Sequence record: PQ471515.1
Reading direction: 5' to 3' (one strand)
From: Escherichia phage Turkey3
Length of the DNA: 64,000 nt
Position numbers and translations under genes: made by a program
Shown here: positions 3,669-59,246 of the stretch, piece by piece
Position numbering within the stretch: position 1 is the first letter of the stretch
How the letters are laid out: every line of letters begins with the position of its first letter
Notes under the pieces: generated by a model
What the model saw: only the letters and a program-made list of their open reading frames with translations
Told to the model about the DNA's origin: nothing
Databases searched by the model: none

Positions 3669-3942
3669 ATCGAATGAAGTACTTGTTGCTGAAACGATGA
3701 AGATGGTTTATACCATAACAACTAGTAATGATATGTCTTACCCAATTAAGTCCAAGTTGAGGGATATAACTCTTCAGGTTATACAGCAGTACTACAAATC
3801 TAAACACAAAAGTATTATTAATGTTTATCGTGACTATGAAAGGATTCGCATTTTGTTCTGGAACAAGAATCGAGTTCGTTCGGAATGTGATATAGAAAAC
3901 TTTAAATTTGAGAATCTTTATTGTTACAAAGCGGGACAATAG
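3658..3942 (+). CDS. hypothetical protein
   Basis: Track ORF 3640..3942; ATG 3658 (MANKSNEV) overlaps upstream stop. Confidence 0.5.
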   Translation: MANKSNEVLVAETMKMVYTITTSNDMSYPIKSKLRDITLQVIQQYYKSKHKSIINVYRDYERIRILFWNKNRVRSECDIENFKFENLYCYKAGQ

Positions 3943-3960
3943 CTCAAGTAGTGATATAAT
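3933..3960 (+). promoter_or_regulatory. sigma70-type extended -10 promoter (GGGACA-N16-TATAAT)
   Basis: GGGACA 3933-3938, 16-nt spacer, GTGATATAAT ending 3960; member of recurrent motif family. Confidence 0.55.
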
Positions 3961-4000
3961 ATTGGATGAGGAACAATAACTAACACAAGGAGTGTGTAAA

Positions 4001-4729
4001 GTGCTTGACCGTATCCGTTTCGCTACAGAGATGGCGAATGAATTAAACATGGCAAATTTTCAAATGTTAACATCAGTAATGGCTGAACATGCATGTGCTT
4101 ATTCTGTAAGTGGTGTTCAGTGTGGACAGGAGAATATGTTAGCAGATGTATATAGCGAAGTTCAAAGTAAACAATACAGTGTAAAGACGTACAAGGATAA
4201 GTTCGTTAGTCTTTATATGAATGAAGACATTGCAGAAGACCGCAAATATACTGATTTTATTATTGAACGAAGAGTATCAGGTGTATCCAACCCAAATGCT
4301 GACAGTACTACAGTATTTGCAGAAGTACTTCAAGATATATATGAAAATGAATTGAAAAGTAAGAATCATTACAATGTACGTGAAACTAACACAGTGCTCT
4401 TGGGATATGATGAAGACGATCAATATTATTATTTCCGTATGACTGAAGTTCCTTTTGAATATAAATCACCAAGTACTACTGCTGTAAAAGAATTTACCGA
4501 GAAAAGCAAGAACTACAAGAAACATGAAGGCAACCGTTGTAGTATAAATGGTTATAATGAAGATGGTGTTCATATATATGAATGGGTTCATCCTAATTGC
4601 CAGACATACACCCGTTGCTTAAAGAAACGTTATAATTTAGAAGATAATGAATCCTTCTACTTTAAAGTTAAGAAACAAAGTTATACTCGTCCTGAAGATT
4701 CAGAATTGATGGGTATGGTATATTTCTAA
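4001..4729 (+). CDS. hypothetical protein
   Basis: Track ORF from 3992; GTG 4001 lies 9 nt after AAGGAG (3986-3991). Confidence 0.55.
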   Translation: MLDRIRFATEMANELNMANFQMLTSVMAEHACAYSVSGVQCGQENMLADVYSEVQSKQYSVKTYKDKFVSLYMNEDIAEDRKYTDFIIERRVSGVSNPNADSTTVFAEVLQDIYENELKSKNHYNVRETNTVLLGYDEDDQYYYFRMTEVPFEYKSPSTTAVKEFTEKSKNYKKHEGNRCSINGYNEDGVHIYEWVHPNCQTYTRCLKKRYNLEDNESFYFKVKKQSYTRPEDSELMGMVYF

Positions 4730-4738
4730 GGAACTGTT

Positions 4739-5023
4739 ATGGATTTTAACTCACATGCTTGGACATTCGAACAGTATATTTCTTTGTATAATGAAATTTA
4801 CAATACTGATATGTCATACTGCAATTATTTTAGCAATATGATTGATGAATATTCAAAGGAATTTAATAGTTTATACCTTTATGTGAATAAAGAAGTTACA
4901 CATAAGACTATGAATAAAACAGGTACAATTGATGAAATTTCATTTGATACCCGTGGTGTGTATTTCTATATTACATTTTCTGATGATACTCTCGGTATAT
5001 ACACTTGTAGTGAGTTAAAATAA
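4739..5023 (+). CDS. hypothetical protein
   Basis: Complete ORF, no motif recognised. Confidence 0.55.
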   Translation: MDFNSHAWTFEQYISLYNEIYNTDMSYCNYFSNMIDEYSKEFNSLYLYVNKEVTHKTMNKTGTIDEISFDTRGVYFYITFSDDTLGIYTCSELK

Positions 5024-5030
5024 AAATATA

Positions 5031-5054
5031 GGCCAGCGTTTGCTGGTCTTTTTT
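5031..5054 (+). terminator. intrinsic terminator
   Basis: Hairpin GGCCAGC/GCTGGTC followed by TTTTTT. Confidence 0.7.
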
Positions 5055-5067
5055 CGCAGGTACAAAG

Positions 5068-5370
5068 ATGCTCAGTATAGATTTAATTAACAGTACTATA
5101 AAGTTGTTAGCTGATGTAGTGAGAGAATCCAATGGAACTGTATACACATCAATGTATAAAATCTTTGAACGATACATCAAGGATTGTAATATATCCTTAT
5201 ATGGACTGGCTGTTGATATAGACGACCACTATGAAATTAATACTTCATATAAAACTGGAATGTTAATTGGTATTAATATAAAGATGGGATATTTTCCTTA
5301 TTACTGTATAGGATTACCAGATAGTACTATGGTAGATTACCCAGCCAGTACTATTAAACTAAGAGGATAG
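5068..5370 (+). CDS. hypothetical protein
   Basis: Complete ORF. Confidence 0.5.
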   Translation: MLSIDLINSTIKLLADVVRESNGTVYTSMYKIFERYIKDCNISLYGLAVDIDDHYEINTSYKTGMLIGINIKMGYFPYYCIGLPDSTMVDYPASTIKLRG

Positions 5371-56964: not shown

Positions 56965-57149
56965 TGGAATATACAATATGTGCTATTATTTGTATCTTAG
57001 CTTTAATCTGTGGCGTTGGTGTGATGATTTATTGTGATGCAGAACCCAGTACTGAAGTAGGAACAACAATAACACTTAAACCTGGTGTTAAAATTAATGA
57101 TACCTATTGCTACAATCCAAACACAAACCGCTATGAGATTTGTTTATGA
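56964..57149 (+). CDS. small Cys-rich membrane protein
   Basis: Track ORF from TTG 56946; ATG 56964 in TGATG overlap. Confidence 0.45.
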   Translation: MEYTICAIICILALICGVGVMIYCDAEPSTEVGTTITLKPGVKINDTYCYNPNTNRYEICL

Positions 57150-57553
57150 GAACATTCAACATTGATTATATAATTGATTCGATTGCAGAACATATGAAAA
57201 ACATAAGTAAAAACGAGCCTGGTTTTTACTTCAACTTAGATAAACTCCATCGCAATACCAATGTATCTAGTTTTAATCGTGCTAAGAAACTTTACATCCG
57301 TATACATAACCTTTGGTACAGTGACGATACGTTGATGATAGATATCACTGTTGATGAAGAAATAACATTAAGATATATTGACGATTTTAAATCAGATGAT
57401 ATTCGTTCTGGCTCATTACCAATTGATGCTTCATATGAAGAGTATCTACAATATCAGTTCATTGATGACACATTTGGATTTGACTTTGAACTATATAATA
57501 GTATAATGAACGTATATCATGTATATGAGGATTACATTGGTGGACGCAAGTAA
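57140..57553 (+). CDS. paralog family D protein 1
   Basis: ORF; shares LQYQFIDDTFGFDF with next gene. Confidence 0.55.
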   Translation: MFMRTFNIDYIIDSIAEHMKNISKNEPGFYFNLDKLHRNTNVSSFNRAKKLYIRIHNLWYSDDTLMIDITVDEEITLRYIDDFKSDDIRSGSLPIDASYEEYLQYQFIDDTFGFDFELYNSIMNVYHVYEDYIGGRK

Positions 57554-57962
57554 AATTCCAAAATTTAATGAAACGTTAAAGTACTTTGCTGAACATGAAA
57601 TCAGTACTGAAAGACGTGGTTTAATTTCATACAATCATCATCGTGTTATGTACACTAATAATTTCCAGGGTACAGTTCGTATTAAATTTCGTAATGCACT
57701 CGATGACAATGATGAATTGTTAATTTTACTACGAAAAAGTAAGATTGAATTGACATACGCAACTCACCATATTGAAAGTGAGTTGATGTGGCACACCCTA
57801 TCAAAAAAAGAAGGGACATTACCAGTTGTTGATAATGGACCAGAAACACTTCTTCAGTACATGTTCATTGATGATACATTTAGTATTGACTATCCATCAT
57901 TTCAGTGTATACTAGATATACATGCAAAATATTACGACCGTCTACGTGATAGATTAATTTAA
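57519..57962 (+). CDS. paralog family D protein 2
   Basis: ORF; LLQYMFIDDTFSIDY; start uncertain. Confidence 0.5.
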   Translation: MYMRITLVDASKIPKFNETLKYFAEHEISTERRGLISYNHHRVMYTNNFQGTVRIKFRNALDDNDELLILLRKSKIELTYATHHIESELMWHTLSKKEGTLPVVDNGPETLLQYMFIDDTFSIDYPSFQCILDIHAKYYDRLRDRLI

Positions 57963-57973
57963 TTGGAGGCATT

Positions 57974-58096
57974 GTGATTACAGTATTAGAAGAAGATTGG
58001 GGTGTTTCCGAGCAAGGAACAGATGAATATGAATATCCAGAATATCAGCCAAAAGGCTTCTGGGAACGTCTACGTGATTGGTTGATGGGGGAATGA
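57974..58096 (+). CDS. conserved ~40-aa peptide, copy 2
   Basis: GTG start after GGAGG; ends DWLMGE like copy 1; stop 2 nt before CCA-enzyme ATG. Confidence 0.45.
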   Translation: MITVLEEDWGVSEQGTDEYEYPEYQPKGFWERLRDWLMGE

Positions 58097-58097
58097 T

Positions 58098-59213
58098 ATG
58101 AAAAAGTATTTGGTTGGTGGCTACGTTCGTGACCGTTTAATGGGCATCCGTGCAAAAGACAAAGATTATGTTATTGTCGGTGCTACCGAATCCGATATTA
58201 AATACTTGCAAAGTATTGGATACAAGCAAGTAGGTAAGGATTTCCCTGTATATCTAAGTCCAGAAGGTAATGAACACGCATTAGCCCGTACTGAGCGTAA
58301 AACTGGTACTGGATATGGTGGCTTCGAAGTGAATACAAAAGGTGTGACACTAGAACAAGATCTATATCGTCGTGATCTCACAATCAATAGTATTGCATAT
58401 GATCCAGTACTCCAGATTCACATCGACCCTTATGGCGGGAAAGCTGATATCAAGAACAAAGTACTTCGTCATGTATCAGAACACTTTAAAGAAGATCCAT
58501 TGCGTGTTCTACGTTTGGCCCGTTTCGCTACGCGTTACTCCGACTTTACAATCCATGATGATACTATGACAATGTGTAAAGATATGGTTAGTACTGGTGA
58601 ACTAGACCATCTAGTTCCAGATCGTGTTTTTGTTGAATTCGAAAAAGCACTTTCTGAAGAAAACCCTTCCAAGTTTATCAAAACTCTGGTACAATTTGGT
58701 TATTACGAAAAGGCATTTACTACAGTTCCAGTTACCAAGAAACGTCTGGAATTAATTGATTCTATCGCTGCAAATTGTACAGAAGAATATAAACCATATT
58801 TCTTATGGACAGTACTTCTTGAAAATGAAGAAGTAAATAATGATTCAGTACTTAACGGTTCCATTAAGGTTCCAGTTAAGTACGTGAAGTTTAGTAATTA
58901 CATCAAGCGTTTCCGTGAAGATATTAAAACCTTCCGTAAGAAGACCCCAGTTGAAATGGGGCAAATCTTACTGGATATGAATATCAAAAACAATGGTGGT
59001 GAAGATTTCCTTTACAAAGTACTGGAAAACTTCATTTTGAACAAAGAAATTGATTCTGAACTTGAAGATTTGATTATTAAAGTTTATGATCGTTATACTG
59101 ATGTTGAATTACCTGATATTCAGCAGTTAGTGAAAGATGGTGAACTCCAAACATCGGAGATTCGTGATTTTGTTGCTGAATTGCGTATTGAAGCAATCAA
59201 GCAAATGTTCTAA
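58098..59213 (+). CDS. tRNA nucleotidyltransferase (CCA-adding enzyme, class II head/neck/body)
   Basis: YLVGGYVRDRLMG, DKDYVIVGAT, ALARTERK, RRDLTIN, DPLRVLRLARFA collinear with E. coli Cca; no HD domain. Confidence 0.9.
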   Translation: MKKYLVGGYVRDRLMGIRAKDKDYVIVGATESDIKYLQSIGYKQVGKDFPVYLSPEGNEHALARTERKTGTGYGGFEVNTKGVTLEQDLYRRDLTINSIAYDPVLQIHIDPYGGKADIKNKVLRHVSEHFKEDPLRVLRLARFATRYSDFTIHDDTMTMCKDMVSTGELDHLVPDRVFVEFEKALSEENPSKFIKTLVQFGYYEKAFTTVPVTKKRLELIDSIAANCTEEYKPYFLWTVLLENEEVNNDSVLNGSIKVPVKYVKFSNYIKRFREDIKTFRKKTPVEMGQILLDMNIKNNGGEDFLYKVLENFILNKEIDSELEDLIIKVYDRYTDVELPDIQQLVKDGELQTSEIRDFVAELRIEAIKQMF

Positions 59214-59218
59214 AAGCT

Positions 59219-59246
59219 GGGACAAGTTAACATCTTCTGATATAAT
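59219..59246 (+). promoter_or_regulatory. promoter (GGGACA-N16-TATAAT)
   Basis: GGGACA 59219-59224, 16-nt spacer, TATAAT 59241-59246. Confidence 0.5.

Follow-up and report, generated by a model that had tools for sequence, protein, structure and literature searches.

Do the seven similar promoter-like sequences that lie between genes of an Escherichia jumbo phage form one promoter class of the phage's own and, if so, what reads them? The window analysed here is a stretch of 64,000 nucleotides from Escherichia phage Turkey3 (PQ471515.1), a jumbo phage of E. coli that belongs to Asteriusvirus (121Q/PBECO4-type, RaK2-like) and is 98.8% identical to vB_Ec-M-J. Our preferred reading, to which we give a probability of roughly 45%, is that these sequences are true promoters and make up a second, "middle-type" class whose upstream hexamer would be read by a phage sigma factor. 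They deserve attention on two counts: the box appears to change along with the phage sigma, and one of the sites is predicted to drive a large structured RNA.

Seven sites of one architecture

The original prediction described seven intergenic sites with GGGACA, TAGACA or GAGACA, a 16-nt spacer and TATAAT, and we found this sequence at all seven positions. Each reads [G/T][G/A]GACA-N13-TGATATAAT, and KRGACA-N13-TGATATAAT occurs exactly seven times in the window and 0.00 times in shuffled sequence. The looser GACA-N16-TATAAT occurs eight times, always on the + strand, where 0.47 are expected, and 0/100 shuffles reach eight. The extended TG, proposed to be usual, turned out to be invariable: TGA-TATAAT stands in 7/7 sites, with TG at -15/-14, and each -10 is an exact TATAAT, the canonical sigma70 element. 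The fixed 16-bp spacer also held in all seven, within the sigma70 range of 17 +/- 1 bp, but it fails as a mark of the class since early promoters use 16 nt as well. The hexamers GGGACA, GAGACA and TAGACA do not resemble the canonical TTGACA-like -35. Across 35 intergenic TGnTATAAT sites gathered without bias, the successive hexamer positions hold G in 24/35, R in 32/35, G in 18, A in 24, C in 20 and A in 23; T is almost absent from the first two positions genome-wide, though the genome is 65% A+T. About 25-28 nt 5' of the TG lies an A-rich tract that resembles an UP element. All seven sites are intergenic, in sequence of which only ~7-8% is intergenic, and are on the coding strand. The next ORF begins 31-136 nt further on, or 662 nt where an ORF-less RNA lies between; most class-2 sites directly precede ORFs with ribosome-binding sites.

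Comparison with phage G17 (~82% nucleotide identity) showed that the boxes are retained while spacers and flanks diverged. The site at 3933-3960 (+, GGGACA-N13-TGATATAAT), 32 nt 5' of the ORF at 3992-4729, keeps its hexamer and TGATATAAT unchanged in G17, with 6/13 spacer bases different. At 10853-10880 (+), 53 nt 5' of the ORF at 10933-11241, GAGACA-N13-TGATATAAT corresponds to GAGACG-N13-TGATATAAT with an altered spacer. The TAGACA-N13-TGATATAAT at 18510-18537 (+), 35 nt 5' of a ClpP-like protease gene (18572-19267), is matched in register by TGGACA-N13-TGATATAAT, with the 5' flank and the entire spacer unalignable. The second TAGACA-N13-TGATATAAT, at 22037-22064 (+), stands behind a terminator, 136 nt 5' of the ORF at 22200-22808, and a TTGACT-type promoter-like site follows it at 22133-22159; it is not kept in the rearranged G17 region, which has TTGACA-N14-TGATATGAT. 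The site at 27426-27453 (+, GGGACA-N13-TGATATAAT), 31 nt 5' of a small ORF (27484-27681), has its hexamer as one arm of an inverted repeat, GGGAC-N4-GTCCC (27426-27439); G17 keeps hexamer and -10 there, separated by 14 nt, and its repeat, GGGACAT-T-ATGTCCC, is perfect. The last two sites are also GGGACA-N13-TGATATAAT: one at 47705-47732 (+), discussed below, and one at 59219-59246 (+), 74 nt 5' of a NUDIX hydrolase gene (59320-59733) and identical in vB_Ec-M-J (record position 123118).

Weaker candidates on the + strand include GGGACA-N13-GGATATAAT, lacking the TG, at 25170-25197, within the 3' end of the gene at 24736-25287 and ~100 nt 5' of the ORF at 25297-25617, and GGGACA-N14-TGATATAAT at 13075-13103, within the gene at 12604-13362. 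Both are kept in G17, but both sit in coding sequence, which makes the conservation of the former uninformative. GGAACA-N13-TGCTATAAT (7243-7270) lies within an RNA ligase gene, 225 nt 5' of the ORF starting at 7495, and GGGCAA-N13-TGCTATAAT (53427-53454) has a doubtful role, its -10 lying just ~13 nt short of the following start codon.

In the terminal repeat, the early promoters read TTGACA/TTGCAA-N16-TATAAT and lack the extended TG; promoters with these hexamers also occur elsewhere in the genome as a class separate from the GRGACA type. In vB_Ec-M-J, early-type sites are concentrated in two places, the terminal repeat and 300-330 kb, whereas class-2 sites spread over 40-290 kb; TTGMMH hexamers go without TG in 28/30 cases and nRGACR hexamers with TG in 14/15 (Fisher p=1e-8). 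A genome-wide search of vB_Ec-M-J for GACA-N16-TATAAT gave 41 sites, every one of them on the coding strand and none on the opposite one. Only three recurrent promoter-like motifs were found, for three sigma-type factors; CAGTACTG is in ~45-fold excess. Among 2.9 M viral contigs, the class is recurrent only in RaK2-like jumbo phages. The proposal of one phage-specific promoter class is thus borne out: it is distinct from the early promoters, kept in relatives, and has a sigma70-type -10 at fixed spacing.

The RNA downstream of site 47705

The site at 47705-47732 is predicted to drive an ORF-less structured RNA of ~0.5 kb (47740-48308, +), a member of a previously unlisted family with 3-5 copies per genome. 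It has conserved blocks at 47791-47813, 47977-47985 and 48119-48145, a hairpin with a U-run at 48231-48256, a conserved CCCCTGCGGGGGG hairpin at 48264-48283 and AAATCCCGTCAAG at 48296-48308, all on the + strand. RNAalifold on the family gave 83 pairs, 50 of them with compensatory changes, and 95.9% of alignment cells were paired versus 41-44% in slid controls; strand-specific G-U pairs are many and there are long-range helices. No match was found in Rfam, and none to tRNA or tmRNA. In different phages, 27/28 copies of the element have a class-2 promoter at the matching relative position.

Hexamer change and its possible readers

In orthologous genes of four genera, hexamer-N13-TGnTATAAT is kept and the hexamers are genus-specific: GRGACA, TTGGGACA, GAAACG/GGAACG and TGAACG. 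Class-2 targets in RaK2-like genera include the genes for the gp55-like late sigma, SSB and primase; the corresponding positions in vB_Ec-M-J (191590, 223441 and 233543, respectively) match their counterparts in CBB, K64-1 and 7t3. The orthologous promoters of CBB and K64-1 keep GAAACG/TGAACG, a 2/6 match to TTGACA. Region 4.2 of sigma70 is, as far as is known, essentially identical across the Enterobacterales hosts, and given this near-identity the hexamers of the sister genera suggest that the box is not a variant of the sigma70 -35. A -35 element read by host sigma70 does not account for the hexamer. What had been taken for a conserved G-rich prefix of a -35 element is, in this sense, better read as part of a lineage-specific box. 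As for the suggestion that host sigma70 RNA polymerase reads the sites, the sigma70-type -10 stands, while host sigma70 as the reader is not established. The phage also encodes a sigma70-family factor of its own, which the original prediction did not take into account.

This phage sigma (the EcMJ_505 ortholog) has 322 aa, with Pfam regions 2 and 3 and PDB matches to SigB/SigA/RpoS at 1e-17, and can be aligned to SigA/SigB/RpoS through region 4. Region 4 is significant in Pfam for only one ortholog (121Q), and its helix-turn-helix contains an 8-10 residue insertion. Full-length orthologs were found in 71 phage records; identity is 60% between phages with ~82% identical DNA and 29-46% between genera. 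Across four lineages, and with no phylogenetic correction, the start of the 4.2 helix varies with the hexamer: RSSLHR/RSSIHR/RTSLHR in three GGGACA phages, KATLSR with GAAACG and RGTLHY with TGAACG. In overall sigma similarity, however, 7t3 is closest to CBB (46%) and Asteriusvirus (EcMJ, 121Q) to K64-1 (42-45%). The sigma operon begins at TTGACA-N13-TGGTATAAT, which combines a consensus TTGACA with a TGG extended promoter. The PA5oct-like phages, the one clade that makes up the sigma-free comparison, have gp55 and no detectable sigma ortholog, and the Callisto gp55 gene is preceded by a canonical TTGACT-N17-TAAAAT; a Vibrio phage was uninformative for this comparison.

The mechanism that we propose would use host core RNA polymerase, because no phage RNA polymerase is annotated. 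Host sigma70 would read the canonical TTGACA/TTGCAA-N16-TATAAT promoters of early genes, including the phage-sigma operon. Class-2 promoters would be used next, for genes of nucleotide metabolism and replication, for the gene of the gp55-like late sigma and for the ~0.5-kb RNA family, so that a cascade may run from sigma70 through the phage sigma to the gp55-like factor. At each class-2 promoter, region 4.2 of the phage sigma would contact the lineage-specific hexamer (consensus G-R-G-A-C-A) and region 2 the TATAAT of the invariant TGnTATAAT placed 13 nt further on, with transcription presumably starting 6-8 nt downstream. The middle-type timing is suggested by gene content. The phage sigma has both region 2 and region 4, and its consensus early promoter suggests that it is expressed before the class-2 promoters come into use. 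The literature searched holds no start-site or transcript data for this phage group. We also put forward, as a tentative proposal with somewhat less than even chances, that the fast-evolving sigma and the class-2 box co-evolve across RaK2-like phages, as a natural series of orthogonal sigma/-35 pairs with a common host-like extended -10, and with a regulon that includes replication genes, the late sigma gene and 3-5 copies of an RNA present only in sigma-carrying phages.

A counterpoint to the phage sigma as reader is the -10 itself: it matches the extended -10 consensus of host sigma70 perfectly, which means that E-sigma70 should be capable of firing these promoters unaided. The main rival, less likely in our view, keeps the phage co-factor of the original prediction and is close to the sigma appropriation of T4 MotA/AsiA at middle promoters and of P23-45 gp39/gp76, which favour extended -10 promoters: E-sigma70 would bind the extended -10, the hexamer would be the box of a separate phage activator, which an anti-region-4 factor may accompany, and the phage sigma would serve something else. 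TGnTATAAT stays constant across genera, whereas the phage sigma varies in region 2.4 (VYM vs IRQ) and the residues with which sigma70 reads the -10 are missing from all orthologs (W433/W434 to T/S/A, E458 to V) or variable in region 2.4/3.0 (H455 is Y in Asteriusvirus and 7t3, and H in K64-1 and CBB). The group is also distantly related to T4, with gp55, gp20, gp23 and UvsX/Y-like genes in common; the hexamer occupies the position of the T4 MotA box, and the conserved inverted repeat around the hexamer at 27426 is expected of a dimeric DNA-binding protein. However, this scheme requires an extra factor and gives the conserved sigma no promoters of its own, the hexamer changes along with the 4.2 helix of the sigma, and by annotation no MotA/AsiA homolog is found in vB_Ec-M-J, CBB, K64-1 or 7t3.

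It is unlikely that E-sigma70 suffices by itself, with the sites as ordinary extended -10 promoters and nRGACA as a weak 4/6 -35 that sets their strength below that of early promoters. GACA does equal positions 3-6 of TTGACA, and both the 16-nt spacing shared with early promoters and the UP-element-like tract fit such a reading, but the near exclusion of T from hexamer positions 1-2 is the opposite of the sigma70 preference, the CBB/K64-1 orthologs hold to their 2/6 hexamers, and the boxes stay while spacers drift. Highly improbable is a role of some units as T4-type replication origins, with a middle-promoter transcript as R-loop primer, rather than primarily as gene promoters; it would concern above all the four dispersed units per genome in which a class-2 promoter is followed by ~0.5 kb without an ORF. 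T4 oriF and oriG do consist of a middle promoter and a downstream unwinding element; here, however, RNA-type covariation, strand-specific G-U pairs and long-range helices are unlike a DNA unwinding element, and most class-2 sites stand directly before ORFs with ribosome-binding sites.

Comparison with known phage promoter systems

Among the features of the T4 middle promoters are a sigma70-type -10 that often carries TGn, a phage box in place of the -35, and replication and nucleotide-metabolism genes as targets. The present class shares these features. However, the T4 box TGCTTtA is unrelated to the hexamer, the MotA box (a/t)(a/t)(a/t)TGCTTtA centred at -30 is absent from all 7 sites, neither MotA nor AsiA is annotated in five genomes or regions (a reading of annotation only), and this group encodes a full sigma70-family factor while T4 has none. 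In Bacillus phage SPO1, host sigmaA is followed by gp28 and then by gp33/34. The cascade proposed here is similar: one of the early genes codes for a sigma-family factor, the late sigma gene stands under a second class, and there are three classes for three sigma factors; unlike here, where the -10 is the host consensus, gp28 promoters depart from the host at both -35 and -10. Thermus phage P23-45 reportedly switches host RNA polymerase through gp39/gp76 to middle/late promoters with an extended -10 and no -35 (Tagami et al., 2014, as cited in PMC7318152). Later genes on extended -10 promoters, with -35-dependent transcription as the early or host mode, would be common to both phages; the conserved upstream hexamer is found here and has no conserved counterpart in P23-45.

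The closest relatives are the divergent RpoD-like promoters reported from Pectobacterium phage CBB and Cronobacter phage GAP32 (Buttimer et al., 2017; Abbasifar et al., 2014). [quoted passage not shown] The Asteriusvirus papers in the literature searched do not mention promoters. The CBB/GAP32 and Turkey3 promoters, in silico predictions both, belong to one phage group and have in common a hexamer, 13 nt and TGnTATAAT, that is, a sigma70-like -10 with a non-canonical box at -35; in the CBB sequence they precede orthologous genes for the gp55-like sigma, SSB, primase and exonucleases. The hexamer differs, being GRGACA here and (T)GAAACG/GGAACG in CBB, and the exact CBB/GAP32 box TGAAACG is absent from our sites. 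GRGACA and GAAACG nevertheless have G1, R2, A4 and C5 in common at equal distance from the TG, and we treat GRGACA as a putative genus-specific variant of the RaK2-like box rather than as an exclusion from it. Promoters of this kind had already been predicted in CBB and GAP32, and the GRGACA class is a new predicted member of the kind.

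Predicted class-2 promoters in Turkey3 and vB_Ec-M-J

A 10-kb piece of the window is 98.8% identical to Escherichia phage vB_Ec-M-J (genus Asteriusvirus, 378 kb) and ~82% identical to the 121Q/PBECO4/G17 type, with weaker similarity to Salmonella, Pectobacterium and Klebsiella jumbo phages. The counterpart of the window is found at ~63-127 kb of the vB_Ec-M-J record, a genome that we put together from eight pieces for genome-wide counts. The window has a G+C content of 34.8% and, in our own ORF map, 117 of its 124 ORFs on the + strand; its genes include RNA ligase, polynucleotide kinase, DNA ligase, dCMP deaminases, anaerobic ribonucleotide reductase, PhoH-like, Sir2, NUDIX and CCA-adding enzyme.

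The seven promoter-like sites of the original prediction (3933, 10853, 18510, 22037, 27426, 47705 and 59219) are all present as described, and the extended TG that had been called usual is in fact found at every one of them as a full extended -10, TGATATAAT. GACA-N16-TATAAT occurs eight times on the + strand of the window and never on the - strand (0.47 expected), and KRGACA-N13-TGATATAAT was found seven times vs none in 100 shuffles, which rules out a chance origin. The proposed intergenic placement also held: all seven sites fall within the ~7-8% of the window sequence outside genes, 31-136 nt upstream of an ORF, with the exception of 47705, which lies ahead of a 690-nt ORF-less stretch. Four weaker variants of the motif occur, at 7243, 13075, 25170 and 53427.

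Throughout vB_Ec-M-J, the coding strand carries 41 copies of GACA-N16-TATAAT and the opposite strand none. Among its intergenic TATAAT sites, TTG-type hexamers (the early class) lack the extended TG in 28 of 30 cases, whereas nRGACR hexamers (class 2) carry it in 14 of 15 (hexamer type vs TG, Fisher p=1e-8). The early type is concentrated at 0-20 kb and 300-330 kb, and class 2 is spread over 40-290 kb. When intergenic TGnTATAAT sites were collected with no condition on the upstream sequence (n=35), the hexamer showed G in 24 and a purine in 32 of the 35, followed by G (18), A (24), C (20) and A (23), in a genome of 65% A+T, and an A-rich tract lay ~25-28 nt upstream of the TG. Judged by its sequence, class 2 is a discrete class of predicted promoters and not a loose sigma70 match. 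The exact 16-nt spacer, which had been taken as a mark of the class, did not survive as such: early promoters use 16 nt too, so that this spacing is rather a habit of the phage.

The early class is best seen in the 21.5-kb terminal repeat of vB_Ec-M-J (locus L002, record 1-21525), where ~35 near-identical predicted promoters each precede a tiny ORF. They consist of an A-rich tract (AAAAAG)-TACTTGCAA/TTGACA (TTGCAA or TTGACA)-N16-TATAAT-GTTTTACATC, followed on the 3' side by a conserved 5'-UTR hairpin, GGGGAGAA-TAG-TTCTCCCC, and a ribosome-binding site; in its motifs, this family matches the textbook picture of strong early promoters for sigma70. Repeated terminator-promoter fusions, AAAGGGTTGACTTCGGTCAGCCCTTTT-TGC-TATAAT, were observed at ~315-330 kb of the same record (locus L007), in which the stem of the terminator contains a TTGACT -35 box and the extended -10 follows 17 nt downstream. 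Additionally, T4-late-like motifs precede large structural-type genes in the window (CTCTAAATAAT, ATCTAAATTAC and CATAAATACAG at 35721-35750, 45559-45569 and 61972-61982), and (C)TAAATA(A/T)T, often with CAGTACT ahead, precedes genes for portal, capsid and tail in other parts of vB_Ec-M-J. All of these motifs probably represent late promoters of the gp55 type.

The window contains 38 copies of the palindrome CAGTACTG (e.g. 151-158, 1756-1763 and 3535-3542) against 0.84 expected from shuffles, and vB_Ec-M-J contains 220 against 3.8 expected from base composition; AGTACT occurs 177 times in the window, with 21.5 expected. CAGTACTG is also enriched in CBB, K64-1, 7t3 and G17. Its copies fall both inside and outside coding sequence, within the spacers of early promoters (AGTACTG-TATAAT) and directly ahead of the late-like motifs. 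It may be a site of protein binding, a target of modification or a signal for recombination.

Conservation and target genes

In G17, a phage of the 121Q type, the class-2 boxes are kept and the spacers drift. At site 3933, 6 of the 13 spacer bases are changed; at 18510 neither the spacer nor the upstream flank can be aligned, and TGGACA-N13-TGATATAAT is still in register. At 27426, where GGGAC of the window hexamer pairs with GTCCC four bases downstream (27426-27439), the G17 gap is one base longer and a perfect GGGACAT-T-ATGTCCC inverted repeat is kept. Similar repeats are found at 223534 and 228707 of vB_Ec-M-J. The repeat at 27426 could be the operator of a dimeric protein. Site 22037 is absent from G17. 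In the window this site belongs to a row of three promoter-like elements (22025-22159, in the gap before ORF 22200), standing between a canonical TTGACA just upstream of its hexamer and a TTGACT-N15-TATAAT (22133-22159); the G17 counterpart of the gap is rearranged and contains an additional gene in the opposite orientation.

Across 2.9 million viral contigs, an exact search for GGGACA-N13-TGATATAAT returned 81 stretches, and more than one match per contig was found only on contigs of 350-370 kb, which are RaK2-like phages (seven on the 121Q contig). The predicted targets of class 2 in vB_Ec-M-J are the gp55-like late sigma gene (191590), an assignment supported by homology to cyanophage gp55, SSB (223441 and 223534), primase (233543), a small regulator that precedes DNA polymerase (210688) and exonucleases, along with the nucleotide-metabolism blocks of the window. 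A middle class would be expected to serve such genes, and middle timing is what they would suggest.

Orthologous genes in other genera keep the class-2 architecture with a different hexamer: (T)GAAACG or GGAACG-N13-TGGTATAAT in CBB (Mimasvirus), TGAACG/TGAACA-N13-TGATATAAT in K64-1 (Alcyoneusvirus) and TTGGGACA-N13/14-TGATATAAT in Salmonella phage 7t3 (genus not assigned).

A large structured RNA behind class-2 promoters

Behind site 47705 there is ~0.5 kb without an ORF (window 47740-48308). Four paralogous copies of this element, 70-79% identical and each directly after a class-2 promoter, are found in vB_Ec-M-J, with paralogs at 59.4, 196.3 and 307.2 kb of the record. By blastn the element occurs at 249 places in 71 RaK2-like jumbo phage records, 3-5 copies per genome; full-length orthologs of the phage-encoded sigma factor are likewise present in 71 records, a comparison of totals and not of record lists. 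The window copy is 96-97% identical to the 121Q-type one, with flanking DNA at ~82%. A scan with a conserved block gave 20 loci (L017-L036), 16 on 350-380-kb contigs and four on shorter viral contigs (23-174 kb); across 185,579 genomes of bacteria and archaea this block had no match. Of 28 copies, 27 are preceded by a class-2 promoter whose hexamer is the one appropriate to the genus.

RNAalifold on 24 distinct copies predicted 83 pairs, and compensatory double changes were seen at 50 of these. Paired cells reach 95.9% in the alignment vs 41-44% with the partners slid by 1-3 columns, and the covariation score is 0.457 vs 0.06-0.08 in these slid controls. The predicted fold is rich in invariant G-U pairs and includes several long-range helices. 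A covariance model of the 5' domain recovered a copy from outside its training set, directly 3' of the K64-1 sigma gene (E=6e-9), the position that a copy also occupies in Asteriusvirus; it found none in PA5oct-like Callisto or Vibrio phage regions. The 690-nt gap after 47705 has no tRNA, tmRNA or known RNA family at Rfam gathering scores and nothing above noise at E<=10, and Rfam 15 has no match to the element, which present annotations miss or often cover with spurious small ORFs. In Callisto, a 1.5-kb ORF-less gap lies between an endonuclease VII-like gene and the next gene (L116, 24860-26372), behind a canonical TTGACA-N17 (TGC) TATAAT; RaK2-like phages have one RNA copy there. Four ncRNAs are reported for PA5oct, a relative of Callisto.

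The reader of the class-2 hexamer

GAAACG and TGAACG match TTGACA at two of six positions. The hosts of the compared class-2 phages (Asteriusvirus, CBB, K64-1 and 7t3) are all Enterobacterales, across which sigma70 region 4.2 is, as far as is known, essentially the same. Since the box drifts yet is conserved, region 4 of host sigma70 does not explain it; a reading by host sigma70 alone, for which TGnTATAAT would be the exact target, seems to us improbable. All these phages encode a sigma70-family protein (322 aa in vB_Ec-M-J), whose operon starts at a consensus TTGACA-N13-TGGTATAAT promoter. The vB_Ec-M-J protein shows Pfam regions 2 and 3, and its PDB matches (SigB, SigA, RpoD, RpoS, down to 1e-17) extend into region 4. 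It evolves fast, with 60% identity between two Asteriusvirus types and 29-46% between genera. The recognition helix of region 4.2 starts with RSSLHR, RSSIHR or RTSLHR in three GGGACA phages, KATLSR in CBB and RGTLHY in K64-1. Overall, the 7t3 sigma is closest to that of CBB, and those of Asteriusvirus (EcMJ, 121Q) to that of K64-1; in these phages the helix start appears to track the hexamer despite overall kinship, which would speak for the phage sigma as reader. PA5oct-like Pseudomonas phages point the same way, having a gp55-like gene and no detectable ortholog of the phage sigma, as does the canonical TTGACT-N17-TAAAAT ahead of the Callisto gp55 gene. Also in favour, we recovered no more than three recurrent promoter-like motifs (the early one, that of class 2 and the T4-late-like (C)TAAATA(A/T)T), set against three sigma-type factors: k-mer and by-eye, non-exhaustive scans of oriented upstream regions gave these, terminators and the ubiquitous CAGTACTG, and no fourth motif.

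Against the phage sigma stand the -10, an exact host sigma70 target that stays the same while region 2.4 differs between genera; the lack of W433/W434 and E458 in all phage orthologs; H455 changed to Y in Asteriusvirus and 7t3, though kept in K64-1 and CBB; and an insertion of 8-10 residues in the region 4 helix-turn-helix. A possible explanation may be that host sigma70 binds through the extended -10 while a separate phage factor takes the hexamer, as in the T4 MotA/AsiA system; we regard this as rather unlikely. That class-2 units are origin-type units is very improbable, and other readings take the remaining weight. We tentatively favour the phage sigma as the reader of the hexamer, with a probability of about 0.45. 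The prediction of a phage-specific class with a host-type -10 stands, and its attribution to host sigma70 is unproven, the phage sigma being the more economical candidate.

The hexamers GGAAC/GAAAC recall ECF -35 boxes. An ECF-like region 4 is a lead at most: Pfam gives Sigma70_r4, not r4_2, and significantly in the 121Q ortholog only. Ecwhy_1 was discarded as a natural sigma knockout. The fEgEco12 paper names the RNA polymerase sigma factor as one of the proteins 'completely absent' from it, and tblastn finds the gene full-length and 99.1% identical (MH791411.1 1665-2630); it lies at the start of the record, so the absence is probably an annotation or comparison artefact. Vibrio phage 2.275.O, considered as a second sigma-free outgroup, was uninformative (TGTTATAAT, no clear box, two sites only).

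No RNA polymerase of the phage's own is annotated in RaK2-like jumbo phages, and reviews go no further than the assumption that the conserved sigma homologs of these phages 'likely' guide the host polymerase to promoters specific to the phage (PMC7598289, PMC13282480); we found no promoter tied to a RaK2-like phage sigma in the literature. Class 2, defined at single-base resolution together with its regulon and a cross-genus pattern in which the -10 is fixed and the drifting box appears to track the 4.2 helix of the sigma, offers material to test this assumption. Transcription units also become definable in genomes of 350-380 kb with more than 80% of genes unnamed, which would improve their annotation, and a large structured RNA family is brought to light. 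Concerning known systems, RNA-seq exists for PA5oct, with canonical promoter motifs. For Asteriusvirus our literature search found no promoters, transcriptomes or start sites, and returned predictions for CBB and GAP32 only; among annotated relatives, the G17 record marks terminators only and the vB_Ec-M-J record marks no promoters. For CBB, such sites have been described in print as 'divergent RpoD-like promoters' with TGAAACG as -35, located ahead of genes for DNA synthesis and of the gp55-like gene and also seen in GAP32 (PMC5259590). The window family thus adds an Asteriusvirus member to a class that had been predicted in silico before.
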